DNA of 64,000 nt from Opitutales bacterium (GTDB lineage: Bacteria > Verrucomicrobiota > Verrucomicrobiia > Opitutales > UBA2987), in assembly GCA_965226885.1 (NCBI GenBank), contig CBDDEL010000010.1, positions 105,168 to 169,167 of the forward strand, given 5' to 3'. Below, one piece after another: positions 9,675 through 34,457 of the stretch. The position numbers and the translations under genes were made by a program. Position 1 is the first letter of the stretch. Every line of letters starts with the position of its first letter. The notes beneath the pieces were generated by a model, which saw nothing but the letters and a program-made list of their open reading frames with translations, searched no databases and had not been told where the DNA came from.

Positions 9675-9686
9675 GCCAACCCATAT

Positions 9687-10648: not shown

Positions 10649-11055
10649 AAATCTGACATTAGATACAGTAAAACGCCGATAGCGGGAAAAGAATACGACC
10701 ATGCAGATAAAGATTCATATGTTCTTGCTTTTTGCATTCATGGCAGTCTTCGCCTCTATCGGGCACGTCGCCAACGCGCAGACGCCTATCCCGGATAGCG
10801 CTCTTGAGGTTGCTATTCGCAATTCTTTAGGGAAACCTACGGGCGATATTACCGCCGCCGACATGGAATCGCTGACCAACCTTTCGGCCTCCTTCAGTGG
10901 CATCTCCGACCTGACCGGCTTGGAGGCGGCCGTGAATCTGACCTCGCTAGACCTCCCCGGCACCCAGATCAGTGATATCGGCACCCTGAGCGGACTCACC
11001 AACCTGACATCTCTAAACCTCTCCGTCAATCAGATCAACGATATTAGCGCCCTAA

Positions 11056-12628
11056 CCCGGATATTTCATGAAGGGTAAAGTTTGGCTCGTTATTGCTATT
11101 GGAGATGGAGATGGATTTCTTTGTATTTTGAGCAGATCGTCTTGATTTTTAGGTGTTTTTCAGGGTGTAGAGACACTGCCCCCTTTCCCCCATTGGTTCG
11201 GTAGTGCCGGGGGCAGCACCAATGCACCCTTTAGGTTGGCACCAATCGGCGGGCCGCATGGTTGAAAAGACTGGCCCAAGGATAACTCTCACTTAGGTGA
11301 AAGTGAATCGTTCGGGTGTTGCGCACGATGACCGCTCCGATCTTGATTAATTTGAGCCGCAGGGTGTGCCATTGGGCCCGCGCCCACTTCGTCCCTTTTA
11401 AGGCTAACCGGCGCATGGCTTCCATCAAGGTGTAGGCCAGCGCCGACAAGAGCAATCGCCACTGATTGGCCCACCATTGATGGGCGCTGGTGCGCTCGCT
11501 GAACAATTGCATCTGTTCCTTGATTCGGTTCTCCATTTCACCGCGGCCACAGTATACCTTGTCGTAAAGCTCCTGGGGATCGCCCGGCAGGTTCGTCACC
11601 ACGAAGCGCGGGTTGGACCCCTGTGCGGTGTGTTCGGCTTTATGGATGACCAACCGCAGCCATCGCCACGAATCGACAGCATAGACGAAGTCCTGGAATA
11701 ACCGTTGTTTTTTACCCCTTAGTTCGAACCATTCTTTGGCCTGCTTTTGCAACTGCTGGGCGTCTTGCTGCAAGCGTGCATTGCGAGCCATCCCCACGAT
11801 GTAACTAACTTCGTAGCGGTCGCACCAAGAGAGTATCCGGTCTCGACAAAATCCACTGTCGGCGCGCCAAATAATCCGCGTACGGGGCCAGCTTTGGCGC
11901 ATCCGTTTAACCAGCAATTTGAGGATGGCCCCGGCATGCTTGCTGGCATCGATCTTGCTCGGCCGCAGGTAGGCCACCAGCAGCTGATCACCGCAAAAAA
12001 CATATAGCGGCAGAAAACAGTAATGATCATAATAACCGTGGAAAAAACGTCCCTCCTGGAGCCCGTGCACCGGATTGTCGGTGGCGTCAAAGTCCAGGAT
12101 GATCTCTTCGGGTTCCTCGGCAAAGGAGCCCATGAACTGTTCGACCAACAGCTCGTTTACCGCAAAGGCCGCCCGCCGATCCTGCCCGTTTTCAAAACGA
12201 CACACAGTCGGCGCGCTGGCCAACGTTTCAATGCGCCCCGTTACCGTTTGCAACAATGGATCGTGGCGCAGGGTATCAAAGTCGTTCAAATCCTCATAGC
12301 CCGCCACCAGCCCGTAAACGCGCTGCCGCAGCATCCCCAATACCTCATGGCGTACTTTGCCCTTCTGCCGTTTGTCCACTAACTGTCGGGCCGCTCGTTC
12401 GGTCAAGCCCAACTGCCGATCCACTTCCCGGATCAAAAGCAGTCCGGCATCCGAAGTAACCTCTCCGCCCTTGAAATCAACCCGCACACGGCGGCCTTTT
12501 ACCCTTGTCAACTGTAGCTTTAATTGTTTACCTTTTGTCATCGCTGATATTGCTTTAATTATTGATCTATCCTGCTGTATATCAGCAGTTAAGCATATCA
12601 ACGATACTTTTTTTACGAAATATCCGGG
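11056..12628 (-). mobile_element. IS1380 type 1
   Basis: CCCGGATATTTC ends; TSD CTAA at 11052-11055 and 12629-12632. Confidence 0.93.
11231..12601 (-). CDS. IS1380 type 1 transposase (intact; start probably the MTKGKQ ATG)
   Basis: 456-aa ORF with the IS1380 DDE motifs. Confidence 0.92.
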   Translation of the reverse strand: MICLTADIQQDRSIIKAISAMTKGKQLKLQLTRVKGRRVRVDFKGGEVTSDAGLLLIREVDRQLGLTERAARQLVDKRQKGKVRHEVLGMLRQRVYGLVAGYEDLNDFDTLRHDPLLQTVTGRIETLASAPTVCRFENGQDRRAAFAVNELLVEQFMGSFAEEPEEIILDFDATDNPVHGLQEGRFFHGYYDHYCFLPLYVFCGDQLLVAYLRPSKIDASKHAGAILKLLVKRMRQSWPRTRIIWRADSGFCRDRILSWCDRYEVSYIVGMARNARLQQDAQQLQKQAKEWFELRGKKQRLFQDFVYAVDSWRWLRLVIHKAEHTAQGSNPRFVVTNLPGDPQELYDKVYCGRGEMENRIKEQMQLFSERTSAHQWWANQWRLLLSALAYTLMEAMRRLALKGTKWARAQWHTLRLKLIKIGAVIVRNTRTIHFHLSESYPWASLFNHAARRLVPT

Positions 12629-13040
12629 CTAAGCGGGCTCACCAACCTGACATCTCTAAACCTCTCCGGCAACCAGCTCAACGATATTAGCGCCCTGAGC
12701 GGGCTCGCCAGCCTAACATTGCTATTCCTCAATTTCAGCCAGATCAGCGATATCAGCGCCCTGAGCGGGCTCACCAGCCTGATAGAGCTATACCTCTGGA
12801 ACAACCAGATCAGGGATATCACCGCCCTGAGCGGGCTCACCAGCCTGAAAACGTTACGCCTTGGCGACAATCAGATCAGCAATATTAGCGCCCTGAGCGG
12901 GCTCACCAGCCTGATAGAGCTAAACCTCGGCTACAACCAGAGCAACGATATCAGCGCCCTGAGCGGGCTCACCAGCCTGATAGAGCTATACCTCACCAAC
13001 AACCAGCTCAGTGATATTAGTGCATTATCTGAATTAACTA
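12629..13040 (+). repeat. 66-bp tandem repeats encoding the LRR units
   Basis: AGCGCCCTGAGCGGGCTCACCAGCCTG recurs with a 66-bp period. Confidence 0.9.
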
Positions 13041-13186
13041 ATCTTGTTTACCTGGATATTAGAACCAACTATCTCGATCTGCGGGAAGATTCGCGGGCAC
13101 GGCAAGTTGTTGATGGACTACAAGTCAATGGCACGGTAGTTGTTTATGACAATCAGCAGATTAAATTATCCCTACAAGTTCATTAG

Positions 13187-14753
13187 CCCGGATATTTCGT
13201 AAAAAAAGTATCGTTGATATGCTTAACTGCTGATATACAGCAGGATAGATCAATAATTAAAGCAATATCAGCGATGACAAAAGGTAAACAATTAAAGCTA
13301 CAGTTGACAAGGGTAAAAGGCCGCCGTGTGCGGGTTGATTTCAAGGGCGGAGAGGTTACTTCGGATGCCGGACTGCTTTTGATCCGGGAAGTGGATCGGC
13401 AGTTGGGCTTGACCGAACGAGCGGCCCGACAGTTAGTGGACAAACGGCAGAAGGGCAAAGTACGCCATGAGGTATTGGGGATGCTGCGGCAGCGCGTTTA
13501 CGGGCTGGTGGCGGGCTATGAGGATTTGAACGACTTTGATACCCTGCGCCACGATCCATTGTTGCAAACGGTAACGGGGCGCATTGAAACGTTGGCCAGC
13601 GCGCCGACTGTGTGTCGTTTTGAAAACGGGCAGGATCGGCGGGCGGCCTTTGCGGTAAACGAGCTGTTGGTCGAACAGTTCATGGGCTCCTTTGCCGAGG
13701 AACCCGAAGAGATCATCCTGGACTTTGACGCCACCGACAATCCGGTGCACGGGCTCCAGGAGGGACGTTTTTTCCACGGTTATTATGATCATTACTGTTT
13801 TCTGCCGCTATATGTTTTTTGCGGTGATCAGCTGCTGGTGGCCTACCTGCGGCCGAGCAAGATCGATGCCAGCAAGCATGCCGGGGCCATCCTCAAATTG
13901 CTGGTTAAACGGATTCGCCAAAGCTGGCCCCGTACGCGGATTATTTGGCGCGCCGACAGTGGATTTTGTCGAGACCGGATACTCTCTTGGTGCGACCGCA
14001 ACGAAGTTAGTTACATCGTGGGGATGGCTCGCAATGCACGCTTGCAGCAAGACGCCCAGCAGTTGCAAAAGCAGGCCAAAGAATGGTTCGAACTAAGGGG
14101 TAAAAAACAACGGTTATTCCAGGACTTCGTCTATGCTGCCGATTCGTGGCGATGGCTGCGGTTGGTCATCCATAAAGCCGAACACACCGCACAGGGGTCC
14201 AACCCGCGCTTCGTGGTGACGAACCTGCCGGGCGATCCCCAGGAGCTTTACGACAAGGTATACTGTGGCCGCGGTGAAATGGAGAACCGAATCAAGGAAC
14301 AGATGCAATTGTTCAGCGAGCGCACCAGCGCCCATCAATGGTGGGCCAATCAGTGCCGATTGCTCTTGTCGGCGCTGGCCTACACCTTGATGGAAGCCAT
14401 GCGCCGGTTAGCCTTAAAAGGGACGAAGTGGGCGCGGGCCCAATGCCACACCCTGCGGCTCAAATTAATCAAGATCGGAGCGGTCATCGTGCGCAACACC
14501 CGAACGATTCACTTTCACCTAAGTGAGAGTTATCCTTGGGCCAGTCTTTTCAACCATGCGGCCCGCCGATTGGTGCCAACCTAAAGGGTGCATTGGTGCT
14601 GCCCCCGGCACTACCGAACCAATGGGGGAAAGGGGGCAGTGTCTCTACACCCTGAAAAACACCTAAAAATCAAGACGATCTGCTCAAAATACAAAGAAAT
14701 CCATCTCCAATAGCAATAACGAGCCAAACTTTACCCTTCATGAAATATCCGGG
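13187..14753 (+). mobile_element. IS1380 type 1
   Basis: Same IRs; TSD TTAG at 13183-13186 and 14754-14757. Confidence 0.93.
13214..14584 (+). CDS. IS1380 type 1 transposase (intact)
   Basis: 456-aa ORF nearly identical to the other copies. Confidence 0.92.
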   Translation: MICLTADIQQDRSIIKAISAMTKGKQLKLQLTRVKGRRVRVDFKGGEVTSDAGLLLIREVDRQLGLTERAARQLVDKRQKGKVRHEVLGMLRQRVYGLVAGYEDLNDFDTLRHDPLLQTVTGRIETLASAPTVCRFENGQDRRAAFAVNELLVEQFMGSFAEEPEEIILDFDATDNPVHGLQEGRFFHGYYDHYCFLPLYVFCGDQLLVAYLRPSKIDASKHAGAILKLLVKRIRQSWPRTRIIWRADSGFCRDRILSWCDRNEVSYIVGMARNARLQQDAQQLQKQAKEWFELRGKKQRLFQDFVYAADSWRWLRLVIHKAEHTAQGSNPRFVVTNLPGDPQELYDKVYCGRGEMENRIKEQMQLFSERTSAHQWWANQCRLLLSALAYTLMEAMRRLALKGTKWARAQCHTLRLKLIKIGAVIVRNTRTIHFHLSESYPWASLFNHAARRLVPT

Positions 14754-14861
14754 TTAGGATCATGCTGGATGCCGCTATTTCTGAAATATTCATGCTTTCG
14801 TAGCCTTTTACGGCGGACGCTTCTTCCGGGGTTGGTTGGGTTTATTGAGTTTTGAGGGCGG

Positions 14862-19240: not shown

Positions 19241-19555
19241 GTGGGGCGCAAGAGCGATGCCCAATGGGTTTGGATCGCTCTTTGCCGACGCACCCGTCAA
19301 ATCCTCTCCTATGCCATTGGGCCTCGGGATTGGTATCGTTGCCGGGAACTTTACGAGCGTCTGCCACGGGCCTACAAAAGATGTGCCACCTACAGCGACT
19401 TTTGGAGCACTTATGATGAAGTCTTTCCTCATAACCGATCCGTGGGAAAAGAAACCGGTGAAACGGCCCATGTGGAACGATGGAACAATACCCTGCGCCA
19501 ACGACTGGGTCGTTTCACACGCAAAACCCTCTCCTTTTCCAAGCTTAAGAGTATG
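19241..19555 (+). pseudogene. insB: IS1 InsB, truncated
   Basis: DELWSFVG, YSDFWSTY, TAHVERWNNTLRQRL; cut by IS21. Confidence 0.85.
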
Positions 19556-19728
19556 TGTAAACGCCGGGATGAAACCGGTAAGGGGGTCGGGGTAAAACCG
19601 GTACGCTTGGAATAAGGTTTAGGTTAGTAATTGCAGGTACGTCAAGGTTTAGGGTTTGGGAGTTGGTTTTGGGGATTGGCTTGGGGTCGGTGAGGAGGCC
19701 GGAGGCCGACGAGCCGGGCCCAAGGCGT

Positions 19729-20496
19729 TTATTGTTTTGTGCCACGGCGACGGCGTCGAGCATCGCGCAAGCGGTAGCTTTGCCCGTTGGCTTCGAGGAT
19801 ATGCACCCGATGGGTGAGTCGGTCCAGCAGAGCTCCGGTGAGCCGTTCGGAACCGAGCACTTCGATCCAGTTCTCAAAGGGCAGGTTGGTGGTGACGATG
19901 AGACTGGTGCGCTCGTAAGCGCGGCTGACCACGTCGAAGAGCAGTTCGGAACCGGTCTTGGAAAAAGGGACGTAACCGAGTTCGTCGAGGATGAGTAGGT
20001 CGAGCCTTTCGAGTTGCTTCATGAAGCGCTGCAGGTCGTGGTTGTCGCGTTGCTCGAGCATATGGGTAACCAGGGCGGTGACCCCGAAGAAACGGATCCG
20101 CCGGCCCTGGGCACAGGCGGCAAAGCCCAGGGCGGTGGCCAGGTGCGTTTTACCGGTACCGGCGTTACCGAGGAGCAGCACGTTTTCGCGCTGGTCGACA
20201 TACTCCCCGCGCATGAGCTCTCGGATGAGCGCTTCGTTGATCGAGGGCTGCGCTTCAAAGGCGAAGCTCTCGAGGGTCTTGAGCACGGGGAAACGGGCGT
20301 TTTTGATCCGCCGCTGGGCGGCCCGCTGTTCGCGTTCAATGAGCTCCCGTTCGACCAGATGCAACAAAAAGGCGGCGTAATCGAGCCGGTCCCGGGAACA
20401 AGCCGCGGCCACCGCCGGCCATTCGCGCAGGATGGTGGGCAACTTCAGTTTCTTGAGGTGATGGTGTAACAGCAGCTGGTTTTTTTCTTCCTTCAT
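19729..20496 (-). CDS. istB: IS21 helper ATPase IstB
   Basis: [25 protein letters not shown]. Confidence 0.95.
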   Translation of the reverse strand: MKEEKNQLLLHHHLKKLKLPTILREWPAVAAACSRDRLDYAAFLLHLVERELIEREQRAAQRRIKNARFPVLKTLESFAFEAQPSINEALIRELMRGEYVDQRENVLLLGNAGTGKTHLATALGFAACAQGRRIRFFGVTALVTHMLEQRDNHDLQRFMKQLERLDLLILDELGYVPFSKTGSELLFDVVSRAYERTSLIVTTNLPFENWIEVLGSERLTGALLDRLTHRVHILEANGQSYRLRDARRRRRGTKQ

Positions 20497-21998
20497 AAAG
20501 CCCCTCCTGGAATCTTGAGCAGTTCGCTGTAGGCACCGAGGTCAGGGGCGGCCACACGGACGTGACGCAGGTGTGGATGGCCGTCCAGCCGGAAGGTTCT
20601 GCTCCCGTAGTCTTCCTGAGGATAGAGATACTGGGCGATGGCCTCACGAGTCAGTCCCCCCACCCGCAGGGCCGAGACGACGGCCTGCTGCAAGGCCGCC
20701 ATGGGGTGTTTCTCCAACAGCCGCAGCACCCGGATATACTCCCGGGTGCCTTCGCCCCCGCATTGGCTTTCGAGCCGGCGTCTGAGGACCTGCAGGCACT
20801 GCGGCAACTGCCAGCCCGAGAGTGGGCGGGCGAAGTCCAAAGCGCCCGGTTTTTTCTCCAGCAAAGCCAGGTAGTGCACCGGCTCGAAAGAGACTTGCTC
20901 TTTATCCCAAATGCGGCGGTGCCGGGCCACCTCTTGGCCCCCACAGAAGATCACCACCTGCCGACAGGACCCTTCCACCACCACCGGATGGTGGGCGCAG
21001 CGCACCGGCACCGAATAGTCGTTGCACTCGAAGCGCACCAGCGAGAGGCTGCTGACGCAGGTCGAGCGTTTGCGGCTCGCTTCAAAGGGTATGGGCGGCA
21101 ACGCCAGCATGACGGCGCGCTCCTCGGCCAGCAGTTCCTTTTTCACCGCCCTTTTCCCGCGTAATTTACGCTCCATGTCCCGCTCACATGCCTCCAACAG
21201 CTTTGCGTTGAGTTCCTCCAGGTCCCGAACCTGCGGTACCGGTACCAGGAAGTTGGCCCGGGCATAACGCACGATCCCCTCGACCACGCCCTTCTCGTTG
21301 GGCCGGGCGGGCAGACAGAAGTGTTCCTCGAACAGGTAATGGCTCTGTAGCTGCAGAAACCCGTCGGTCAGCTTGCGTTCACGCGAACCGATAATCTTAC
21401 CCACCGCCACCTTCGAGTTGTCATAGCTGATGCGCCGGGGCACCGCCCCGAAAAACTCAAAAGCTCGCAGGTGCCCCTCCCAGAAGCTCTCCGTGCACTC
21501 CCGTTCGAACACCTGCACGAAAAAGGCATCGCTGTAGGGCAGGCTCATGGCAAAAAATGGCCGCCTACGCAATTGCCCCGCCTCCTTCACCAGGGCATGA
21601 CCGAAGTCCACCTGTCCCTCCCCGGGGCGGTGCTCCAGCGGCACGAACACTTCCCGCCGCCTCGCTCGCAGCTCGGCCACCACCTCCTTGACCGCCGTGT
21701 AGCCCCCTTGGTAGCCCTTCTCCCGACCCAAACGCTGGTAGATCCGTTTGGCCGTATGGCGCTGCTTCTTGGGCACGTTCCGGTCCGCTTTGAGCACCTC
21801 CTCGATCCAGCCCACATACGGATCGATCTTGCGCTCTCGCCTCTTCTTGCGCCGGTATCCCGGCGGCTGGGAATAGGCCAGCATCTTTCCCAGGGTCTCC
21901 CAGTGCAGTCCCTCTTCTCGCATTACAGAGCGCTTGCTCTGCTTGTCCCGCAGCACTTTGTGCCGCACTCTTGTCCATTGCTTCATATCTCGATACAC
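20493..21998 (-). CDS. istA: IS21 transposase IstA
   Basis: GQVDFG, ISYDN, NEKGVVEG. Confidence 0.95.
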   Translation of the reverse strand: MYRDMKQWTRVRHKVLRDKQSKRSVMREEGLHWETLGKMLAYSQPPGYRRKKRRERKIDPYVGWIEEVLKADRNVPKKQRHTAKRIYQRLGREKGYQGGYTAVKEVVAELRARRREVFVPLEHRPGEGQVDFGHALVKEAGQLRRRPFFAMSLPYSDAFFVQVFERECTESFWEGHLRAFEFFGAVPRRISYDNSKVAVGKIIGSRERKLTDGFLQLQSHYLFEEHFCLPARPNEKGVVEGIVRYARANFLVPVPQVRDLEELNAKLLEACERDMERKLRGKRAVKKELLAEERAVMLALPPIPFEASRKRSTCVSSLSLVRFECNDYSVPVRCAHHPVVVEGSCRQVVIFCGGQEVARHRRIWDKEQVSFEPVHYLALLEKKPGALDFARPLSGWQLPQCLQVLRRRLESQCGGEGTREYIRVLRLLEKHPMAALQQAVVSALRVGGLTREAIAQYLYPQEDYGSRTFRLDGHPHLRHVRVAAPDLGAYSELLKIPGGAL

Positions 21999-22072
21999 TC
22001 CTCCTTTCTAGGATAAGCGTACCGGTTTTAAAGCGCCCTCTTTACCGTACCGGTTTTTCCCCGGCGTTTACA

Positions 22073-22493
22073 CTTCGTCCCTTTTAAGGCTAACCGGCGC
22101 ATGGCTTCCATCAAGGTGTAGGCCAGCGCCGACAAGAGCAATCGCCACTGATTGGCCCACCATTGATGGGCGCTGGTGCGCTCGCTGAACAATTGCATCT
22201 GTTCCTTGATTCGGTTCTCCATTTCACCGCGGCCACAGTATACCTTGTCGTAAAGCTCCTGGGGATCGCCCGGCAGGTTCGTCACCACGAAGCGCGGGTT
22301 GGACCCCTGTGCGGTGTGTTCGGCTTTATGGATGACCAACCGCAGCCATCGCCACGAATCGGCAGCATAGACGAAGTCCTGGAATAACCGTTGTTTTTTA
22401 CCCCTTAGTTCGAACCATTCTTTGGCCTGCTTTTGCAACTGCTGGGCGTCTTGCTGCAAGCGTGCATTGCGAGCCATCCCCACGATGTAACTA
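22073..22493 (-). mobile_element. Internal fragment of IS1380 type 1
   Basis: Identical to the transposase interior, bounded by IS21 and element A. Confidence 0.9.
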
Positions 22494-22688
22494 GAGGCTG
22501 TCCCAAAAGGGTGATTTTTGCGAGGGCTTTTGATAGGCGCTCATTTTAGAGGTATTTGCATTTGGGAGAGTATCAACTTTGCTCTCCTATGACGTTAGGA
22601 TACTGGTTTTGGGGTCCGGTTGCCTGGTTTTCTTTGTATGAGCCGACAGTAAGGCTGTGAAAAAGTATTGTCCTTGCTTTTCCGCTCT

Positions 22689-24170
22689 CTAGGCCGCCGC
22701 TTTGGTTTTTAGTTCGTCTTGCTGGGCCAGCATCTTGGCTACTTTCCATAGGTTGTGCGAGAGTACCGACCAGGCTACGCTGATCGAGCGGTTGGCAAAG
22801 CCTTTGCTGCGCAACCGCCCGGCCTGCCAGCGATTCTTCAATACCCCGATCCGCCCTTCGGTGCTGGCCCGGCGCTTTTGCAATTGTCTGAACAGTGGTT
22901 CCTCCATCCGGTTTTTCAACTGCTTCGGATCGCGTGGACAGAGCGCGTCGTAGATTCCCTCCTGGGCTAACTGCCGGCGGGCCCGCTGGGAGGCAAATCC
23001 CCGGTCCGCGCACATGGCCGCTATGGGTTCTTCCAGGTTGAAGCGGTTCTGTCTTTGCAAACTCTCTTGCATTTGTTCATTTTCGCTTGGAGTTCGGCTG
23101 CCGTAGAGTTTCCAGTCCAGCAGGTACCCTTCAACGCTTTCTCCCAAAAACAGGGTGTTGCCGAACTCGACCTCTTGGCCCGCTTTACCTCGCACAATCA
23201 CCTGCCCATCGAGTTCGTAAACACTCAAGACTTTCTCTGCGTTTTTCACCTGGCGGCCGCCAATGATCCGCTCGTGCGCCTGTTTGATGACCACCGGGAT
23301 TTGCTCGCTCATGCGCTCCATCCGGGCGAGGATCTGTTGGACCTGTTTTTCGCTGTAATCGCTTTGCTCCCAGCAGGCTTGCAATAATTCCCGGTGACTG
23401 CGGGCATGCTCCCCGAGCCGTTTGAGCAGCTTTTTCATCTGCCTCAAGATACCCTTGCGCTGCCGCGCGCTGTCCTTTCGCCGCCGGCTGTGGGTCATCT
23501 GTATGCACAGCCGATTCATCTGCCGAGCCAAGGGCTCCGGTTCGATCGGCATGCGATGGCGCACACCGGCCTTCTCGCGGATCAGCCGGATCGCTTTGAG
23601 CAACGTGCCGGCTACATCCTTGAGTAATACCCAGTCCGTCGGCCAATGAATGTTAGCCTCCAAACAGGTGCCGTCGATCAGGCAAATGGTGGTGTCAATC
23701 GGCTTGTCCAATCCCACCTGCCGGGCCAGAAGGGCATCGCCCACCACCTCAGTCAAGGTCCGGTGCAAGGCCCTCAACTGCTCTTCGCTGAAAAACTTCG
23801 AGGCCCGCTCCAGGGTGCTTTTGGAGATGCCCCTGATGCCATCGATCTGCCGGACACGGCAAAAGTCGGCCAACAGATCGCTGCTGCCCAGAGCCCGCGA
23901 CAAATGCCGAAACGAAATCCCTCCGAGCAGACGGCCCAGCGTATCCATGCGCAGTGCCTTGATGGCAAAACTGGCCCGCTGCCGCCGGGCCTTTAGACCC
24001 ATTGGCGGCCACCCCTCCAAGGCCAGCTCAATGGCCTGCGATTCCACCTCCGAGTCGATCAGCAGCCGATCGATTCGATCAATGGTGGCGCGGAAGTTAT
24101 CGTAATCGAGGCACCGGTCGACCACAGTTAAAGCTGGACGCAGGAGGCATTGGATGGCTATATTTTTCAT
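22689..24170 (-). CDS. Transposase of IS element A (493 aa from the native ATG)
   Basis: DGTCLEANIHWPTD, GKAGQEVEFG, ADRGF, RASTEGRIG, HNL. The extension to 24275 in the ORF track is read-through from inserted DNA. Confidence 0.88.
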   Translation of the reverse strand: MKNIAIQCLLRPALTVVDRCLDYDNFRATIDRIDRLLIDSEVESQAIELALEGWPPMGLKARRQRASFAIKALRMDTLGRLLGGISFRHLSRALGSSDLLADFCRVRQIDGIRGISKSTLERASKFFSEEQLRALHRTLTEVVGDALLARQVGLDKPIDTTICLIDGTCLEANIHWPTDWVLLKDVAGTLLKAIRLIREKAGVRHRMPIEPEPLARQMNRLCIQMTHSRRRKDSARQRKGILRQMKKLLKRLGEHARSHRELLQACWEQSDYSEKQVQQILARMERMSEQIPVVIKQAHERIIGGRQVKNAEKVLSVYELDGQVIVRGKAGQEVEFGNTLFLGESVEGYLLDWKLYGSRTPSENEQMQESLQRQNRFNLEEPIAAMCADRGFASQRARRQLAQEGIYDALCPRDPKQLKNRMEEPLFRQLQKRRASTEGRIGVLKNRWQAGRLRSKGFANRSISVAWSVLSHNLWKVAKMLAQQDELKTKAAA

Positions 24171-24183
24171 AGAAAGGGCTATA

Positions 24184-24375
24184 GGCGGATCCTCCAGCAG
24201 TTGGTCTTCGAGCCCCTGCCGGAACTCTCCGTCCCAGGCATTTTCTCCGGGCAGGCACTTGATCCGCTCCACCAAAAACTCCCCGCCCTGCGCGCGAGAT
24301 CAAGCATGAGTTCAGGCCCCACCTGACTCTTCATCGCTCCGCGTCGAGTCCGTATGACGTTTCTCGTCTTCTATA
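24184..24375 (-). pseudogene. N-terminal fragment of a gene cut at the unit boundary, possibly a PLP-dependent decarboxylase
   Basis: MLDLARRAG / EFLVERIKCLPGENAWDGEFRQGLEDQLLEDPP across a frameshift. Resemblance recalled, not verified. Confidence 0.35.
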
Positions 24376-24388
24376 TTCGGTGTCACAA

Positions 24389-24658
24389 CTAACTGCGGCG
24401 TGATGCTTTAGATAACACAACAGAATTTTCGATGGGTTTCGTTTCCCATGGCCCGTTTCTCGAACTGCCTTTCGACCCGCTCACTCCTCCTTCGTCGAGC
24501 CGCCCCGCCCAATACGAACCGTCCCGGACTGTCGCAAAGATAAACGGCCACCTGGGCCACCTGATGAGCACTCGTCCCCTGGCTACCAACAATAGGCCAT
24601 GAAGGCGATGCTCGTAGGAAGATTGCTCGCTTCGACGGATTTCACCTTGCAAGACCAA
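24389..24658 (-). pseudogene. Degenerate transposase N-terminus (IS630-like HTH)
   Basis: LQGEIRRSEQSSYEHRLHGLLLVARG. Confidence 0.5.
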
Positions 24659-24779
24659 GCTAGGGGCGCGCCACGGGCAGCCATCCCTGCACCGGCGTGC
24701 CCAACCGGATAGCGCCCCGCGTCTTCAGCGATGCGGCTTGCGATACGGTTGGCGGCGGCCTTGAGGGAACCGTAGGCGA

Positions 24780-24908
24780 GGTGGGTGTAGCGGCGGCGGT
24801 CTGCACCTTGTTGTGCCGGAGCAGGTTTCCAATCATGGGCAGCGCCTCGCCGACCGGAAACCCGTTTCTGGCATAGCTATGTCCAAAAGGTCGTAAATGC
24901 GCTACCAA
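24780..24908 (-). pseudogene. Tyrosine recombinase C-terminal remnant
   Basis: HSYA...GEALPMIGNLLRHNKVQT resembles box II of phage integrases. Confidence 0.55.
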
Positions 24909-24996
24909 AGCTCACGAAAAGAGGCGTGCCGCGCTTGAAGTCGGGCATCACCCGGGGGGGTTGCCTTCCTAAAGTGCGCCGCGGCGCTGAAGCTCT

Positions 24997-27558
24997 TCAA
25001 AAACTGTAGCCGAGCTTTCCGTACCAGAAGGCGCCATCAAACCCAAAGGGGCAGAACTGGCCGTATTTGTTGCCAGTAGTCGCGGCGGACTTCGGATTTT
25101 CGTCAGGGTAATTGTTGAAGACGTTCTGAGCGCCCGCCGTTAAGGTGATTCGATCCGTAAGGGAGTAGTTGACTTCGAAATCAACGAGGAATTCGTCTCC
25201 GTAGGTTTGACTATCCTCGGAATCATGCCAGGAACTATAGTAACGGCCGCGGCCCAGCAGATTCCAGCGATCCAGCATGGGCTGCGTCAGGGTTATGGTT
25301 GCCCGATGCCTGGGAAGACCCTCCTGTAATTCCCGGATGCGGACGTCGTTTATCGTCTCGGGGCTGAACTGGGTGACTTCCGTATTCGTGTAGTTATAAC
25401 CGAGGCTCAGTTCACCCTCCCGCACTCCGGTCGACAGAACGACGTCGATGCCGCGGGTTTCCGTGTCAAAGTCATTGATGAAAAAGACGTACTCCACCAG
25501 ATTGTAGGCGTCGGTGATGCCCGTAGCGAACAATTGATCGCGCTCTGCATCCGTAAACTCGAAGTCCTGTGAGAGCGACATGCGGTTCTTCACGTCGATG
25601 CCGAAATAATCGACCGTGATTACCGTATTGCCCATATCGACAACGAAGCCGATACTGAAGTTGGTCGATTTTTCAGGCGTGAGCGCCTCGCCGCCCCTCC
25701 CCATCGCAACGGGATTGGTGGGAGGAATCACGGCCCTGGTGATTAGTTCCATTCGGTCCGCTTGAAATTCAGTGGTTACGTTGAAAGCGTTTTGCTGACC
25801 GGGAGTGGGGGCCCGGAAACCGGTGTTGAAGCTCCCGCGCACCTTCAGATTCTCGTTGATGCCGTAGGTGGTCGCCAGCTTATAGTTGATTGTGCCTCCG
25901 AAATCATTGAATTCTTCATAGCGCAAAGCGGCGGCAACCAACCAGTCGTCGGTCAGCTCGTATTCCGCGTCCACGTAGACGGCATAGTTGGAGCGGTCCC
26001 ATATACCGGCGGCGCTATCACCGAAACCCGAGAAACCGTTGGAAGCACCCCTGAATCCCTGCTGATGCAGAGCCTGGCCGATCGCATATGACTCGGGTTG
26101 CCCCCTCACGATTTCAAACTCCTCGACACGGTATTCGAAGCCACTGGCGAGGAACAACTGCTCGCTTAGCGGATAGGTCACGCCAAAGTTGAGGTTGATT
26201 TCGGTCTGAATATAATCACCGGGATCGAAATAAGTCGGAGTATCGGGGCCGAGAGAGGCGTTGACGGTATTAAAGATAAAGAAATCAGTGTGATGACGCC
26301 CGTAAGCAGCGCTGAAATCCAAGCCGAGTTTCGATCCGGTTGTTCTCACCCCGGCGACAATGGATTGGTCCTTCGCGTACCCGCCAAAGCGGGGCGTGAA
26401 ACCGCCGGGGAAGAGTTCCTGAAAGGTGAACAGATTGGGATCGTCGAACACCTGTTGCAAAGCGACGGGGTCCGGCACATGGTTAGTTATCGTTACCACA
26501 GGGACCTTGGACTCATCGCCATCCAAAGCGCCCACCAGCAACGTTTTTCCGGCGTCATTACTGAATACGCCGCGTCGCGTATTGGGATTGCGGTAATAGA
26601 ACCCGCCCTCCACTTCCTTGCTCGCGTAGTTGGCATGACCGTAGAACTCGAGGTTCCCGCCTATGGCGGCGCCGTAATTGGCAAACAATTTGAGATCGTC
26701 CCGAACGAAGGGTTGACCCCAGATTTGAGCGGGATTCGCCACCTCGCTGTTTCCCACCGCGATCAGAGCAGCGGCGTCATCTCGCTGCACGGAGCGGATG
26801 GTCTCGCCAGAGTTGCCGTACTCCCCGCTGAGATTGATCCAGGCCTTTTCGCTGCCCAAGCCGATATTGCCGGCGATGGAAACTGCTTCGCCGCCACCGT
26901 CCTGGTAAATCCCCGTTCGAACGATGAGAGACCCTCCTTCGTAACTGTCGTTGAGCTCGAAGTTCAACACCCCCGCAATGGCATCGGAACCGTACTGCGC
27001 CGAAGCTCCGTCGCGCAGCACTTCAATCCGTTTCAGAGCGAGCGCGGGAATGGGGGCTACATCGGGCCCCTGTGCGCCATCGGCGACGCCGTTGCCCAAC
27101 CAGTGAATCACGGACGCGCGGTGGCGGCGCTTGCCGTTGATGAGCACCAGCGTATGGTCCGGCGGCAGCCCGCGTATATTGAGCGGCCGAACGATCGTCG
27201 AGGAGTCGCTGATCGGCTGGGTATTGACGTTGTAAGAGGGGATGACGTTCCTCAATAGATCCTGTAAATCAGTGAAGCCTTGCATGGTGAGGGATTCGCC
27301 GGCGAATGTATCGACGGGCACCGCTGAATCAACCACCGAACGCGGCTCCGCCCGCGAACCGATGATGACCAGTTCTTCGAGGACCTGCAGATTCTCGGAG
27401 TCGTCCCGGGGCTCGGACGGGGCTGGGGTCGAGTGAACGCTTTCGGGCTGCAGCACCTCCTGCGCGAAGGCATTTAAAGGAAGCAATGCAAGTATGGTAA
27501 GAGTAATTGTAGAAAGTCTCATTGGTATCTGAATATGACCATTACACCACTCAACCAA
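24997..27558 (-). CDS. TonB-dependent outer-membrane receptor (intact)
   Basis: Signal peptide, LEELVIIGSR TonB box, plug motifs LVLINGKR and RIEVLRDGASAQYGSDAIAGVLN, C-terminal LGYSF. Start may be MRLSTIT. Confidence 0.95.
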   Translation of the reverse strand: MVEWCNGHIQIPMRLSTITLTILALLPLNAFAQEVLQPESVHSTPAPSEPRDDSENLQVLEELVIIGSRAEPRSVVDSAVPVDTFAGESLTMQGFTDLQDLLRNVIPSYNVNTQPISDSSTIVRPLNIRGLPPDHTLVLINGKRRHRASVIHWLGNGVADGAQGPDVAPIPALALKRIEVLRDGASAQYGSDAIAGVLNFELNDSYEGGSLIVRTGIYQDGGGEAVSIAGNIGLGSEKAWINLSGEYGNSGETIRSVQRDDAAALIAVGNSEVANPAQIWGQPFVRDDLKLFANYGAAIGGNLEFYGHANYASKEVEGGFYYRNPNTRRGVFSNDAGKTLLVGALDGDESKVPVVTITNHVPDPVALQQVFDDPNLFTFQELFPGGFTPRFGGYAKDQSIVAGVRTTGSKLGLDFSAAYGRHHTDFFIFNTVNASLGPDTPTYFDPGDYIQTEINLNFGVTYPLSEQLFLASGFEYRVEEFEIVRGQPESYAIGQALHQQGFRGASNGFSGFGDSAAGIWDRSNYAVYVDAEYELTDDWLVAAALRYEEFNDFGGTINYKLATTYGINENLKVRGSFNTGFRAPTPGQQNAFNVTTEFQADRMELITRAVIPPTNPVAMGRGGEALTPEKSTNFSIGFVVDMGNTVITVDYFGIDVKNRMSLSQDFEFTDAERDQLFATGITDAYNLVEYVFFINDFDTETRGIDVVLSTGVREGELSLGYNYTNTEVTQFSPETINDVRIRELQEGLPRHRATITLTQPMLDRWNLLGRGRYYSSWHDSEDSQTYGDEFLVDFEVNYSLTDRITLTAGAQNVFNNYPDENPKSAATTGNKYGQFCPFGFDGAFWYGKLGYSF

Positions 27559-27603
27559 CTCGAGGTCAAGTCCGGATTCTACTGCCAGGGTAGAAAGATT
27601 CTA

Positions 27604-27947
27604 GGTTCCTCGACGTTTTCAGTGGTACATTGCGGAGGGGATGTTGAGTTTACCGACGGCGAAGTGGAGCATGGTGATTAGCTTCTTTAGTGGTGTGATG
27701 GCCTCTGGCTTTGCGTTTGGTTGCGCTAAAGACACTGTTGAGTTCTTCAATGCAGGTATTGGTGAAGTGCGATTCCCAGTGGGCGAGGGTTTCCTCTTGG
27801 TGATTTTCGATTATGTTGGCCCATGGGTTTAAGGAAGCCTCGCCATGATGCTTACACATTGCGGTAATAACGTTCGAAATAGGTACTCAGGTTGCGTCTT
27901 CTCAGTAAAGGATATTGTGCCAGTACCACTGAAAACGTCGAGGAACC
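27604..27947 (-). mobile_element. ISL3-derived miniature element (344 bp)
   Basis: Perfect 25-bp IRs GGTTCCTCGACGTTTTCAGTGGTAC; 8-bp TSD AGATTCTA (27596-27603, 27948-27955); residual ISL3 C-terminal peptide TNTCIEELNSVFSATKRKARG. Confidence 0.88.
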
Positions 27948-28050
27948 AGATTCTAAGACGCAACTAGCTGATAAGCAGCTGATAAGCAAAAAGATAAAAA
28001 AAGAGCTAGACAATCCCGAATAAATCAGTCATGTTAAGATGGTATGAAAG

Positions 28051-29750
28051 CCGAGATTTCCCATATGAACATTCGTAATCGTTGAAAATAGCTACTTTCT
28101 AATATTTCGATCCAATTTTCTGCTTTCAATGTGATTTTGCAATCCTTTCCTTGGTTATTTGATGATCAAATCGGCAGTATTTAACAATTATTGCTGATTT
28201 TCCCTTTGCTTGGTCAAATCAGGGAAAGATATTTCCTTCTGTTGGAGGTTTCCACAGCACTGATTCCCACAGCACTGATTCCTTTTGTATCGAAAAATCT
28301 TCTTACTCACCCCGTATCAGGTGCGAGTCGCAGTCGCTCTACTCGCTTGAGCATGGTTCGAAACATTTCTCTTGGGATGGCCACCTCAGCCATCTGGAAA
28401 GTGATATACTTGGCATGGTGGATCACCTTTGCTCCGATTTTGATGAGTTTCTCCCGCAAAGAGCTCAGCATCTAGTGCTTCACCTTGCCAGGAAGAATCA
28501 ACCGGCGCATGAAGTTGCCCAGATTGTAGGCTAAGCCGAAGAGCTGAAGCCGAACGGCATTGTCCTCAAAGTCATGGCAGGACAAGCGGGTCCAGTGGAT
28601 GGCATGTTTGCCCTCTTTGATCCACTGCTCTGCGGTGCCCCGGTGGTTGTAAAATTTCACTACCTTCCTGGGTGGCCAGTTCAGATTTGTCACGATGAAA
28701 CCGACCCGCGCAAATAACTCTCCGGCCTGCCACTCGACCTTGGCCACCACCCGGCGAGGTCTCTGCCAACTAGCGGCTTGATACGGAAAACTGGCATAAA
28801 ACACCTTGGGTGCCCACGAGGGTCGCCCCACTGGCCGAGTGAGTAAAGGGGCGATATGTTTTTGTAAAATCGTGTTGCTCTGCAGCCGAATGGCATAGGA
28901 GAAGTTCTCTTGCTCAAGGTAACCGTAGAGGTCCGGATTGGCGAAGGCTGCGTCACCTCGGAAAAATCGTTTCAGGGGACAGTCACGATAGCGGGCAACG
29001 ACCGGTTGGAGCACCGACAACCAATCGTCGGCACTGTGCACATTGCCTTTACGCAGGTTGGCCCGTTCCAGATCACCAAACTGGTTGAAGCAGAACAGGG
29101 GATGGTAACAGGTGCAGCCGAAATGACCGTTGAAGGCTGAGCCTTCCTGCTTCCCGTAAGTAGGGCTCTCCGAACTATCCATATCGAGAATCAATTTTTT
29201 CATCCCCACTCGCCTATTCACCTGGTCGATCCATTGACCACTCATGTCCATCAGTGCGCTCAGATTCGCAGGCTTGGTTAACATCTGTGTTTCAAAGCGG
29301 CTCATTTCACTGGGCGAAGCCGCCGGTTGCCAATCGGCACGACCCCCGACAATCTGCCTCATGACCGGATCAAAGCGCAGGCGCTCCGCATCGTTCGTAT
29401 CTTTGTATCCTGCCAGGCGACTAAAGACAGACTGCCGAAGCAGAGCCGTTCTGCCGTGCTGGATATTTTTGCCCGTGCGCTCCTCCACCACATTTTTGCT
29501 TCCTATTGCAGTCAGCCCGAAAGCCTCATCGAGTTCCCGGTAGAGTAACAATCCTGCATCACTGGTAACCTTCGCACCGTGGAACTCCAACTTGATTCGG
29601 CGGTTGAATTGAACCCGAAAACTGCTCTTTTTTGCGTCACCCATTGGATTTTAAGAATTTGCTCGTTATAAGTATATTTAAGTAACTTATTATTAAACAC
29701 ATAGCGCTTATTTCAAGCTAATTTTCTTATGATGAAATGGGAAATATGGG
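28051..29750 (-). mobile_element. IS1380 type 2 element
   Basis: IRR CCGAGATTTCCCAT at 28051; IRL CCCATATTTCCCAT (reverse strand) ending at 29750; 12 of 14 positions match. Confidence 0.9.
28307..29644 (-). pseudogene. IS1380 type 2 transposase with a premature stop
   Basis: TAG at 28472 where copy 2 has TGG; motifs TSDAGLLL, LDMDSS, RGDAAF, RGTAEQWIKEGK. Confidence 0.88.
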
Positions 29751-29882
29751 CTATATTGATTTTCGCTAACTCAATTATAGAACCCTTTTTTGGCCGGATC
29801 GAGCAAAAACTTGCTCTTTCCGGCTCTTTTTATCAACGTCATCCAGTTGACTATAAAATCTTTATATTTTTGGGACAGCCTC

Positions 29883-29976
29883 TAGGTACAGATTGTTTTG
29901 CGTTCCGACTGCAAGACGTTAGGGAACCGGTTAAAATGGCACATAAGCAAAGACTGCTTACTATTCGAGTATTCAT
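29883..29976 (-). pseudogene. Truncated lipoprotein gene, putative first integron cassette
   Basis: MNTRIVSSLCLCAILTGSLTSCSRNAKQSVP: signal peptide with an LTSC lipobox, cut by element A. Confidence 0.6.
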
Positions 29977-30230: not shown

Positions 30231-30912
30231 TTGTTCACTTATTATGCAATTTACTTCTCCAAAATTGAAATTTCTCGACCTTCTACGACATGAGATTCGC
30301 GGCCGGCACTACAGCTACAGAACCGAGCAAGCCTATGTTTACTGGACCAAAAGGTATATCCTGCACCATCACAAAAGACATCCTAAGGATATGGTGGCCA
30401 AAGAGATAAAGGAATTCCTAGCTTATTTAAGCGTCAATAAGCATGTTTCGGCAAGCACACAAAACCAGGCTTTCAGCGCCCTAATTTTCCTCTACCGGGA
30501 ATTCCTTAAGGTCGATCCGGAGCGAATTGAAGGGGTGATACGTTCAAAAAGACCAAAGCGAATACCTACAGTATTGTCACGCGAAGAGGTTCAAGCGATT
30601 TTCAGCAGTATGGAAGGAGTTCCACAGTTGATTGCCAAATTGTTGTATGGTAGCGGATTGCGTCTGAGGGAGGCTCTCTGTTTAAGAATTAAAGATGTCG
30701 ACTGGCACCTGAATCAAATCACCATAATCGACGGCAAAGTGTAAACGCCGGGATGAAACCGGTACGGGGGTCGGGGTAAAACCGGTACGCTTGGAATAAG
30801 GTTTAGGTTAGTAATTGCAGGTACGTCAAGGTTTAGGGTTTGGGAGTTGGTTTTGGGGATTGGCTTGGGGTCGGTGAGGAGGCCGGAGGCCGACGAGCCG
30901 GGCCCAAGGCGT

Positions 30913-31680
30913 TTATTGTTTTGTGCCACGGCGACGGCGTCGAGCATCGCGCAAGCGGTAGCTTTGCCCGTTGGCTTCGAGGATATGCACCCGATGGGTG
31001 AGTCGGTCCAGCAGAGCTCCGGTGAGCCGTTCGGAACCGAGCACTTCGATCCAGTTCTCAAAGGGCAGGTTGGTGGTGACGATGAGACTGGTGCGCTCGT
31101 AAGCGCGGCTGACCACGTCGAAGAGCAGTTCGGAACCGGTCTTGGAAAAAGGGACGTAACCGAGTTCGTCGAGGATGAGTAGGTCGAGCCTTTCGAGTTG
31201 CTTCATGAAGCGCTGCAGGTCGTGGTTGTCGCGTTGCTCGAGCATATGGGTAACCAGGGCGGTGACCCCGAAGAAACGGATCCGCCGGCCCTGGGCACAG
31301 GCGGCAAAGCCCAGGGCGGTGGCCAGGTGCGTTTTACCGGTACCGGCGTTACCGAGGAGCAGCACGTTTTCGCGCTGGTCGACATACTCCCCGCGCATGA
31401 GCTCTCGGATGAGCGCTTCGTTGATCGAGGGCTGCGCTTCAAAGGCGAAGCTCTCGAGGGTCTTGAGCACGGGGAAACGGGCGTTTTTGATCCGCCGCTG
31501 GGCGGCCCGCTGTTCGCGTTCAATGAGCTCCCGTTCGACCAGATGCAACAAAAAGGCGGCGTAATCGAGCCGGTCCCGGGAACAAGCCGCGGCCACCGCC
31601 GGCCATTCGCGCAGGATGGTGGGCAACTTCAGTTTCTTGAGGTGATGGTGTAACAGCAGCTGGTTTTTTTCTTCCTTCAT
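30913..31680 (-). CDS. istB: IstB
   Basis: Identical protein to copy 1. Confidence 0.95.
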   Translation of the reverse strand: MKEEKNQLLLHHHLKKLKLPTILREWPAVAAACSRDRLDYAAFLLHLVERELIEREQRAAQRRIKNARFPVLKTLESFAFEAQPSINEALIRELMRGEYVDQRENVLLLGNAGTGKTHLATALGFAACAQGRRIRFFGVTALVTHMLEQRDNHDLQRFMKQLERLDLLILDELGYVPFSKTGSELLFDVVSRAYERTSLIVTTNLPFENWIEVLGSERLTGALLDRLTHRVHILEANGQSYRLRDARRRRRGTKQ

Positions 31681-33184
31681 AAAGCCCCTCCTGGAATCTT
31701 GAGCAGTTCGCTGTAGGCACCGAGGTCAGGGGCGGCCACACGGACGTGACGCAGGTGTGGATGGCCGTCCAGCCGGAAGGTTCTGCTCCCGTAGTCTTCC
31801 TGAGGATAGAGATACTGGGCGATGGCCTCACGAGTCAGTCCCCCCCCACCCGCAGGGCCGAGACGACGGCCTGCTGCAAGGCCGCCATGGGGTGTTTCTC
31901 CAACAGCCGCAGCACCCGGATATACTCCCGGGTGCCTTCGCCCCCGCATTGGCTTTCGAGCCGGCGTCTGAGGACCTGCAGGCACTGCGGCAACTGCCAG
32001 CCCGAGAGTGGGCGGGCGAAGTCCAAAGCGCCCGGTTTTTTCTCCAGCAAAGCCAGGTAGTGCACCGGCTCGAAAGAGACTTGCTCTTTATCCCAAATGC
32101 GGCGGTGCCGGGCCACCTCTTGGCCCCCACAGAAGATCACCACCTGCCGACAGGACCCTTCCACCACCACCGGATGGTGGGCGCAGCGCACCGGCACCGA
32201 ATAGTCGTTGCACTCGAAGCGCACCAGCGAGAGGCTGCTGACGCAGGTCGAGCGTTTGCGGCTCGCTTCAAAGGGTATGGGCGGCAACGCCAGCATGACG
32301 GCGCGCTCCTCGGCCAGCAGTTCCTTTTTCACCGCCCTTTTCCCGCGTAATTTACGCTCCATGTCCCGCTCACATGCCTCCAACAGCTTTGCGTTGAGTT
32401 CCTCCAGGTCCCGAACCTGCGGTACCGGTACCAGGAAGTTGGCCCGGGCATAACGCACGATCCCCTCGACCACGCCCTTCTCGTTGGGCCGGGCGGGCAG
32501 ACAGAAGTGTTCCTCGAACAGGTAATGGCTCTGTAGCTGCAGAAACCCGTCGGTCAGCTTGCGTTCACGCGAACCGATAATCTTACCCACCGCCACCTTC
32601 GAGTTGTCATAGCTGATGCGCCGGGGCACCGCCCCGAAAAACTCAAAAGCTCGCAGGGGCCCCTCCCAGAAGCTCTCCGTGCACTCCCGTTCGAACACCT
32701 GCACGAAAAAGGCATCGCTGTAGGGCAGGCTCATGGCAAAAAATGGCCGCCTACGCAATTGCCCCGCCTCCTTCACCAGGGCATGACCGAAGTCCACCTG
32801 TCCCTCCCCGGGGCGGTGCTCCAGCGGCACGAACACTTCCCGCCGCCTCGCTCGCAGCTCGGCCACCACCTCCTTGACCGCCGTGTAGCCCCCTTGGTAG
32901 CCCTTCTCCCGACCCAAACGCTGGTAGATCCGTTTGGCCGTATGGCGCTGCTTCTTGGGCACGTTCCGGTCCGCTTTGAGCACCTCCTCGATCCAGCCCA
33001 CATACGGATCGATCTTGCGCTCTCGCCTCTTCTTGCGCCGGTCTCCCGGCGGCTGGGAATAGGCCAGCATCTTTCCCAGGGTCTCCCAGTGCAGTCCCTC
33101 TTCTCGCATTACAGAGCGCTTGCTCTGCTTGTCCCGCAGCACTTTGTGCCGCACTCTTGTCCATTGCTTCATATCTCGATACAC
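31677..33184 (-). pseudogene. istA: IstA, frameshifted in a C-run
   Basis: The C6 run of the other copies is C8 here (about 31840-31847). Could be an assembly error. Confidence 0.8.
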
Positions 33185-34457
33185 TCCTCCTTTCTAGGAT
33201 AAGCGTACCGGTTTTAAAGCGCCCTCTTTACCGTACCGGTTTTTCCCCGGCGTTTACAGCAAAGGCATGAAAAGCCGGGTCACCGTGCTGCCGGACCCGC
33301 TCAAACCCCCATTGCTAGAACATATTGATCGGGCGAGGTTACTTTATCAATTGGACCAGAGTAAGAAACATCCGGGGGTTCAAGTTCCATTCGCGCTGGA
33401 TAGGAAATATCCGAATCTTGGTAAAGAATGGGGATGGTTCTGGCTTTTCCCGGCCAGAACATTATCCCGAGACCCGGTGAGCGGAATCATTCGAAGACAC
33501 CACTTTCATCCCACAACCCTCCAGAGGGCGGTAAAGAGAGCCTCACAGTTGGCTGGGATTATTAAACATATTAGCTGTCACACATTTCGGCACAGCTTTG
33601 CCACCCATCTACTTGAGGACGGCTACGATATTAGAACGGTTCAGGAACTGCTGGGACATAGCAATGTCACCACGACGATGATCTACACCCATGTTCTGAA
33701 TCGCGGCGGACTATGCGTGAAGAGTCCGCTGAGGGTTTGATTAACCGGTGATGGCTGCCTTCGATCAGATAGCCCAAAACGGAGTGCCAAAAAAGCTTGA
33801 ATAAGGAGTCGCACCATTCATTGCAAACCCCTGAGACATTCCCAACAGTCAAGACCAATGATTAACGTCAAATAGGTCGGATCGGGCTCAAGAGGCTGGC
33901 GTAGTGCTTCTCAGTGGTGACGGTGACATAGGAGTCGCCGAGGAACTGTGCTGCCGTCAGGAGTCCATCCCGCGTTGCGATAACGCTGCCGGCGTGTTTA
34001 CGCAACTCGTGCAACCGTTTAACTCGATCCGGTATGAAACGCGCAATCCAGACGCACGCCTCTCGCTGGATTGCTTTCCGCCGATCTGTTGGCGTGTACC
34101 CAGGCACGATGTAATCCCAAGCCTTCTTAGGCGGACAGAGTTCCTTCCAATCTTCCACTCTCTTCTCCGATACGGGAATCCACCGGTCCCGGCTTTTTGG
34201 AGCAAAGTCCTGCACTTCGGCCGAAGGTGTACCGGCCGACCGTGCCACTACACCGAGTTGATACCAACCTTTCTGCTTTTCAATCCAATGCCAACGTGCC
34301 GCCAGGATCTCCGCTGATCGCATCCCCAGGTAAAACGCCATCTCAAAAATAACGAAAAGCCGCGGATTCTCCGTCCGTAATTTCGTGCGCGCCTCCTGCT
34401 CCATTTGTTCTAGCACATTGATGTGCACTGGAAAAAGTGGACACGAGATTCTCCTAA

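Follow-up and report, generated by a model that had tools for sequence, protein, structure and literature searches.

Insertion sequences (IS) of the IS1380 family generate duplications of 4-5 bp and are capable of one-ended mobilization that makes use of weakly related surrogate ends (PMC12116815, PMC3281130). In the case of ISEcp1/ISEc9, downstream genes are mobilized one-endedly with 5-bp direct repeats and with surrogate right inverted repeats (IRRs) that show 3-12 identities, and for ISEcp1B a terminal G of the surrogate end (C when read inward) has been called crucial (PMC12116815). DNA other than resistance genes is moved as well: ISPme1 and IS1247a of Paracoccus carry genomic DNA of variable length in the form of transposable modules (TMos), and IS1247 mobilizes a haloacetate dehalogenase gene in Xanthobacter (PMC3281130). 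We describe here a 64,000-nt stretch of DNA from an Opitutales bacterium (GCA_965226885.1, contig CBDDEL010000010.1, positions 105,168-169,167, forward strand; the whole stretch is referred to as the window) in which a segment at 24184-29750, carrying a TonB-dependent receptor gene and one copy of an IS1380-family element, interrupts a second IS. It is likely, in our judgement, that this segment belongs with the transposition units of ISEcp1 and ISPme1, as a 'transposable module' made up of one IS copy and bounded by the left inverted repeat (IRL) of that copy, a surrogate distal end and a 5-bp duplication. Such modules are recognizable only on landing in a known sequence context (PMC3281130), and the context is available here because the target is a multicopy IS.

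Feature coordinates follow the numbering of the window, with position 1 its first letter. The repeat structure was established by self-BLAST and by direct reading of the letters, which are in agreement, and self-BLAST portrays the window as a mosaic of insertion sequences that is extremely rich in repeats. Comparisons were made with L081 and L122 (contigs ctg245453l and ctg257232l of European Nucleotide Archive, ENA, entry ERZ21829562, an assembly independent of the window), with L119 and L120 (loci from ENA ERZ28763718, a related assembly), with L001 (a locus in the Opitutales metagenome-assembled genome, MAG, CAXXSV010000001) and with L125 and L126, two copies of the relevant IS1380 element from outside the window.

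A Receptor-Bearing Unit within Element A

The interrupted IS, which we call element A, is a 1.82-kb ISNCY/IS5-like element with terminal inverted repeats (IRs) AGAGGCTGTCCC and a 493-residue transposase that matches NF033593 (ISNCY) with E 5e-61 in a profile search; its ends were set from three copies in the window together with L081. The features that define the insertion are the following.

22492-24183, minus strand: element A copy 2, larger part (self-BLAST; transposase open reading frame, ORF, at 22689-24170)
24179-24183: target-site duplication CTATA, left copy (direct reading)
29751-29755: target-site duplication CTATA, right copy (direct reading)
29756-29884, minus strand: element A copy 2, smaller part, comprising the end that precedes the transposase gene (self-BLAST)
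5382-5386: uninterrupted CTATA in element A copy 1 (single occurrence there)

Copy 2 of element A is split 8 bp upstream of its transposase ATG by 5,567 bp (24184-29750) that lie between the two copies of CTATA, with the left junction reading ...aaagggCTATA/GGCGGATCC... (24179-24184) and the right junction ...GGAAATATGGG/CTATAttgattttcgc... (29750-29756), where the slash marks the point of joining. Copy 1 (990-5515), which two other insertions break elsewhere, reads ...catagaaagggCTATAttgattttcgc... unbroken across 5382-5386 and, over a longer span, ...aaagggCTATAttgattttcgc..., again with no interruption. Strictly counted, the junctions have 8 bp in common, GGGCTATA, consisting of CTATA and GGG. 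The right-hand GGG (29748-29750) is the terminal CCC of the IS1380 element because L125 and L126 begin CCCATATTTCCC with unrelated flanks, and with GGG so assigned the duplication is of 5 bp, not 8 bp. A blunt insertion would copy the next five target bases by chance with a probability of ∼0.001 and the right edge is an IS terminus to the base, so that chance does not account for the junctions. An earlier note on this DNA had described copy 2 as split at a CTATA that is duplicated there and single in copy 1, and self-BLAST and direct reading lead to the same picture; the 'empty target site' that it placed in the window holds as an uninterrupted paralogous copy of element A and not as the actual pre-insertion locus.

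The whole 7.4-kb structure, element A plus insert, is present also in L081, with 99.7% identity over 7,409 bp that include both junctions and with an IS that is 100% identical to that in the window. Peculiar to L081 are an 11-bp insertion and several single-nucleotide polymorphisms. The 11-bp insertion (equivalent of window position 26462) shifts the frame of the receptor gene, leaving ORFs of 395 and 450 amino acids (aa), whereas the window copy is intact. The occurrence of the same junctions alongside private differences makes an assembly artefact unlikely. In both assemblies the 4-bp flanks of element A plus insert do not match (window 22487-22493/29884-29890; L081 9755-9762/17161-17168), and the window keeps one side, L081 the complementary side, of an element A insertion at AACT in a copy of a different IS1380 element, denoted type 1 below. 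The complementary flanks argue for a single ancestral event, with the flanks exchanged later, probably by recombination between IS copies.

The IS1380 Element

The right-hand 1,700 bp of the insert form an IS1380-family element that we denote type 2.

28051-29750, minus strand: IS1380-family element, type 2, 1,700 bp (profiles, with independent copies fixing the ends)

Assignment to the IS1380 family follows from profile matches, length and inverted repeats. The transposase scores 334.9 bits against NF033539, for which the curated cut-off is 180, and 385 bits against PF13701 (E 4e-115, cut-off 34.7), and the IRL at 29737-29750, CCCATATTTCCCAT, agrees with the IRR at 28051-28064, CCGAGATTTCCCAT, at 12/14 positions (15/20 over a longer stretch), both beginning CC. 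The IRR terminus, CCGAGATTTCCC, is common to three window copies with unrelated flanks, at 28051, 44388 and 59619, and the IRR inside the unit, being the same as in the two other copies, is intact. Within the window the IRL terminus occurs once, and it is the starts of L125 (92%) and L126 (94%) that establish it; they bear out, to the base, the proposal of the earlier note that the right edge of the insert is exactly the type 2 IRL.

The transposase gene (28307-29644) contains a TAG at 28472-28474, codon 391 of 445, such that the product ends at residue 390; the equivalent codon is TGG in window copy 2 and in 445-aa relatives. Because of this nonsense codon the unit is probably immobile now unless another copy supplies transposase. 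Among 124 fetched loci only L081 and L082 carry either the type 2 IS or element A. Window copy 2 of the type 2 element (44388-45815) lacks ∼250 bp at its IRL end and adjoins an rve-family transposase gene (45843-46772), and a mechanically called ORF of 494 aa (42929-44413), with a weak GH32-like match, begins within the IRR of that copy and extends outward into the flank.

The Cargo and Its Native Locus

Beyond the IRR, and downstream of the transposase gene, are 3,867 bp of cargo (24184-28050) that include a TonB-dependent receptor gene, a miniature inverted-repeat transposable element (MITE) and a fragment of a gene for a pyridoxal phosphate (PLP)-dependent decarboxylase.

24184-24197: putative surrogate (distal) end of the unit, GGCGGATCCTCCAG (L119, L120 and L122 read through)
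24184-24334, minus strand: PLP-dependent decarboxylase gene, 5' fragment of ∼62 codons, cut by the left end of the unit
24660-24908, minus strand: short, conserved hypothetical ORF following the receptor gene (relatives have 91-95 aa)
24997-27522, minus strand: TonB-dependent receptor gene, intact, 841 aa from ATG (Plug and TonB_dep_Rec_b-barrel domains)
27604-27947: 344-bp ISL3-derived MITE, part of the cargo (PF01610 fragment; L122 provides the empty site)
27956-28050, plus strand: native intergenic DNA, then the opening 7 bp of a 453-aa ORF (ATGAAAG, 28044-28050; homology to L122 and L001)

Opitutales MAGs encode proteins with 94-96% identity to the receptor, while a look-up of the exact receptor protein of the window returned no record; ∼530 bp, MITE included, separate the IRR from the start codon of the receptor gene. 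In L122 the order of genes is a 453-aa ORF on the minus strand (transposase-like, with DruA, DDE_Tnp_1_assoc and DDE_Tnp_1 domains), the receptor gene, a 94-aa ORF and the PLP-decarboxylase gene (13148-13681; E 5.5e-11 to PF00282). The cargo aligns with L122 13335..9835 with this order kept and at 97-99.5% identity, the only exception being the 344-bp MITE, which has perfect 25-bp terminal IRs and an 8-bp target-site duplication AGATTCTA at 27596-27603 and 27948-27955; L122 has a single unduplicated AGATTCTA site, with no MITE, upstream of its receptor gene. Identity to L119/L120 is 96.7% and to L001 95.7%, and the gene order is that of IS-free native loci. The sequence thus shows that the cargo was taken from a chromosomal locus where it is native.

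The relatives L122, L119/L120 and L001 continue beyond the left edge of the unit or beyond the IRR junction. At the left edge L119, L120 and L122 read ...GGAGGATCCGCC/CGAGGACGG..., ∼62 codons into the decarboxylase gene (longer spans ...CTGGAGGATCCGCC/CGAGGACGG... and ...GGATCCGCC/CGAGGACGG...), from which it follows that no IS end is hidden there, and self-BLAST gives no second copy of the left-edge sequence elsewhere in the window. The decarboxylase fragment has a 25-bp deletion relative to the relatives. On the IRR side, homology to L122 and L001 extends up to the base that adjoins the IRR (...GGTATGAAAG/) and takes in the initial 7 bp of the 453-aa ORF; the IS therefore sat within this ORF at the source locus. 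The earlier note had placed the cargo beyond the IRR at 28051 and had seen a left edge that is devoid of an IS end and cuts through a foreign gene; the anatomy is as it described, with the PLP-dependent decarboxylase as the gene that is cut. Colinearity of the cargo with native sequence past 24184 would, according to the same note, have spoken against capture, and what the relatives carry past the edges of the cargo is the decarboxylase gene and the 453-aa ORF, not element A. The search for a donor that it suggested did lead to native loci in which the decarboxylase gene continues past the cut, and did not lead to a donor bearing the IS.

Comparison with Known Units and a Possible Mechanism

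Taken together, a lone IS copy bounded exactly by its IRL, an intact IRR retained inside the unit, downstream cargo, a distal end in coding DNA and a 5-bp duplication constitute the signature of an ISEcp1 unit, and also that of the ISPme1 and IS1247a modules (PMC3281130). The ISEcp1 (ISEc9) units that carry blaCTX-M, blaCMY or blaOXA-181 in Enterobacterales likewise involve a single copy of an IS1380-family element with the IRL as one boundary, cargo that lies past a retained IRR and is oriented as the transposase gene, a distal end in unrelated DNA that is weakly IRR-like, and a 5-bp duplication (PMC12116815). The present unit differs in that its transposase is ∼24% identical to that of ISEcp1 and is now encoded by a pseudogene, in that the host is Opitutales-like, in that the cargo comprises a TonB-dependent receptor gene, a MITE and gene fragments and not a resistance gene, and in that the terminal G is absent. 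With the modules of ISPme1 and IS1247a, and with IS1247, it has in common one IS1380-family copy, adjacent genomic DNA and non-resistance cargo; those modules were trapped on plasmids in Alphaproteobacteria, whereas here one unit is deduced from sequence in another phylum. The suggestion that a distant IS1380 element performs one-ended capture in the manner of ISEcp1 thus agrees with the locus in each anatomical prediction that could be tested except for the terminal G of the surrogate end. The accompanying emphasis on a nutrient-uptake gene in place of a resistance gene is overstated as to novelty, non-resistance cargo being known for IS1247 and ISPme1 (PMC3281130).

We infer that an IS1380 transposase did both the cutting and the joining, selecting the distal end itself, and events might have taken place in the following order. 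The 1.7-kb element would first have inserted at the native locus, 7 bp into the 453-aa ORF, with its IRR facing the TonB-dependent receptor gene, whose upstream region would already have contained the 344-bp MITE. Transposase would subsequently have paired the IRL not with the IRR but with a point 3,867 bp past it, inside the PLP-decarboxylase gene, and the whole piece would then have entered a copy of element A, 8 bp upstream of the transposase start codon, with duplication of CTATA. A donor of this sort is predicted to have the IRL joined to the rest of the 453-aa ORF (...CCCATATTT) on one side and the junction GAAAG-ACAAAAAATC on the other.

Several observations weigh against one-ended transposition as the origin of the unit. 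The left end agrees with the IRR at 6/14 positions, the count given in the earlier note, and this is background level, with 11% of cargo positions matching as well. A total of 42 cargo positions with matches of at least 8/14 were passed over, for example CCGAGCTTTCCGTA at 25010 with 10/14. Read inward, the unit has G as its terminal base in place of the C of the IRR, and the conserved terminal G of ISEcp1 is accordingly absent, a rule established for ISEcp1 only and not for the IS1380 family. The three extra bases (GGG) common to the junctions amount to a 1-in-64 coincidence. The flanks of L125, TTCAA/TTAAA, agree at 4/5 bp and those of L126, a 1.9-kb short-read scaffold, contain no duplication, and a clean 5-bp duplication is thus not shown for simple type 2 insertions. 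Finally, no donor in which the type 2 IS adjoins the cargo was found among eight native or related receptor loci; the contexts of six close receptor variants are native, MITE-composite and plasmid-like loci, none with the type 2 IS1380 element, and a metagenome scan with the receptor protein returned a best full-length match of 51% and one partial match of 72%, and no donor. The mismatch at the distal end and the missing donor leave untouched the evidence for insertion of the segment as one unit.

Of the alternatives the one that survives best, improbable as we consider it, is a simple IS1380 insertion into element A at CTATA followed by recombination with a second IS1380 copy beside the receptor gene and an illegitimate join on the far side, so that the cargo would have come to lie between the IRR and the left CTATA. 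The genome is full of repeats, and exchange of IS flanks is evident from the different flanks of element A plus insert in the window and in L081. The illegitimate join, however, must hit the boundary of the 5-bp duplication exactly, with no base lost or gained, and the decarboxylase fragment has no homology to element A.

Very improbable in our estimation is a composite transposon, or a unit closed at 24184 by another IS end that is degraded and concealed, an alternative that the earlier note had named and that has no positive evidence in its favour. Inward from the left edge, the initial 143 bp code for decarboxylase and are read through uninterrupted by three relatives; this sequence is not repeated elsewhere in the window, and BLAST detected no other IS1380 or element A sequence there. 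A composite transposon has IS or MITE copies at both of its ends, and at 24184 there is neither a repeat nor an IS end.

We assign an equally small likelihood to an ISL3-type transposase as the agent that moved the unit. Elements of the ISL3 type duplicate 8 bp of their target. The junctions have the 8 bp GGGCTATA in common, the MITEs here give duplications of that length, full-length ISL3 transposases are present in the population, and 3 bp inside the left edge the sequence GGATCCTCCAGC matches the MITE IR GGTTCCTCGACG at 8/12 positions. Against this, the right edge has no ISL3 IR and is the IS1380 IRL to the base, and the pseudo-IR is 3 bp away from the junction. Chance alone is expected to give a match of 8/12 at one offset or another at the ∼5% level. 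Movement by ISL3 also predicts IS1380 copies that end ...GGAAATAT and lack CCC, whereas L125 and L126 keep it.

Least credible of all is an assembly chimera from repeat collapse in an IS-rich metagenome, which the extreme repeat content of the window might suggest, given that the independent contig L081 has the same 7.4-kb structure with differences of its own and that a precise duplication at the junctions is not a product of assembly errors.

Other Routes of Receptor Mobility

In this lineage the receptor gene shows unusual mobility, for which there are several routes. In ERZ28763718 a 6.1-kb module between two direct MITE copies (L119 9562-15665 and L120 9562-15665) contains, besides the receptor gene and a 91-aa ORF, the remnant of a decarboxylase and a DDE transposase of 516 aa, and occupies two unrelated chromosomal sites with perfect 8-bp duplications AAACTCGA and TCGGCGGC. 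It is a MITE-bounded composite transposon that carries the same receptor gene. The window unit has in common with it the receptor gene, which in the module is enclosed by the two direct 344-bp copies, and differs from it in having one MITE, well inside, and boundaries that are not MITE ends. A smaller, 3.9-kb MITE-receptor-MITE module is found on contigs with ParA (L121, L123 and L124), of which L124 has in addition RepA_C and both L123 and L124 restriction-enzyme genes. On L128, a 46-kb contig whose name ends in _c and which is possibly circular, the receptor occurs with the same small flanking ORFs of the MITE, as judged at the level of ORFs. In some populations the receptor gene appears to be plasmid-borne.

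The MITE itself has a perfect 25-bp IR, GGTTCCTCGACGTTTTCAGTGGTAC, and encodes a remnant of the C-terminus of an ISL3 transposase. Copies are located at 27596-27955 of the window (target-site duplications included) and at 13993-14337 and 16664-17008 of L122; they are 100% identical across assemblies, with 8-bp duplications AGATTCTA, AAAATCGG and GACTTTTT. In L001 a MITE (9563-9910) is found at the same site upstream of the receptor gene as in the window (27604-27950) and in inverted orientation, with 99.4% identity between the two MITEs and 90-96% in the flanks; L001 also has a tyrosine recombinase gene at a distance of 2.5 kb. The inverted copy could reflect inversion between the MITE IRs or an invertible switch. 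A 499-aa transposase downstream in L001 was considered as a possible element A, which would have made the adjacency of receptor and element A ancestral, and was rejected on the basis of 21% identity and a different position.

Other Elements in the Window

A second IS1380 element, type 1 (∼1.57 kb, IR CCCGGATATTTC), is present at 3625-5199, 11052-12632, 13183-14757 and 47295-48752, with fragments at 22071-22493, 59985-60739, 60735-61061 and 63707-64000. Duplications of 4 bp, TTAG, accompany three of the window copies, which suggests a preference for TTAG/CTAG targets. Inverted type 1 copies also break a region of 66-nt tandem repeats (10920-13078) that is typical of a gene for a leucine-rich-repeat protein. 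A 2.5-kb IS21-like element, encoding a 501-aa protein with a Mu-transposase C-terminal domain and a 255-aa IstB, occurs in three copies that are 99.8-99.96% identical (19555-22072, 30739-33258 and 61062-63578), of which the one at 30739 cuts short a gene for a tyrosine recombinase (30244-30744).

Concluding Remarks

The mechanism considered here is already known and no new one is revealed; what is new is the phylum and the class of cargo. One-ended capture by IS1380 elements has been studied almost entirely by means of ISEcp1 and resistance genes, along with a few captures on trap plasmids in Paracoccus, and the unit described above adds a clean case from nature, found in Verrucomicrobiota-like DNA and involving an element only ∼24% identical to ISEcp1. 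An uninterrupted target, IS-free native loci and an independent assembly with the same junctions are rarely found together in genome data, and all are available in this case.

A broader proposition, which we regard as rather unlikely, combines two statements: that at least three unrelated vehicles (the IS1380 unit, the MITE composite and plasmid-like replicons) repeatedly move the receptor gene in an IS-expanded symbiont lineage, and that this IS1380 clade picks its distal end independent of any IRR-like sequence or conserved terminal base. If true, the multiplicity of vehicles would mean that movement or copying of the receptor gene is selected for, and the choice of end would point to end-independent (run-off or free-end) one-ended transposition and not to the recognition of surrogate IRs that has been proposed for ISEcp1.

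As a likely transposition unit, the segment suggests that one-ended behaviour is spread across the IS1380 family and that uptake genes of the outer membrane can be moved by it in bacteria that are IS-expanded and probably live with a host, while a distal end with no detectable resemblance to the IRR bears on the manner in which IS1380 transposases choose a second end.

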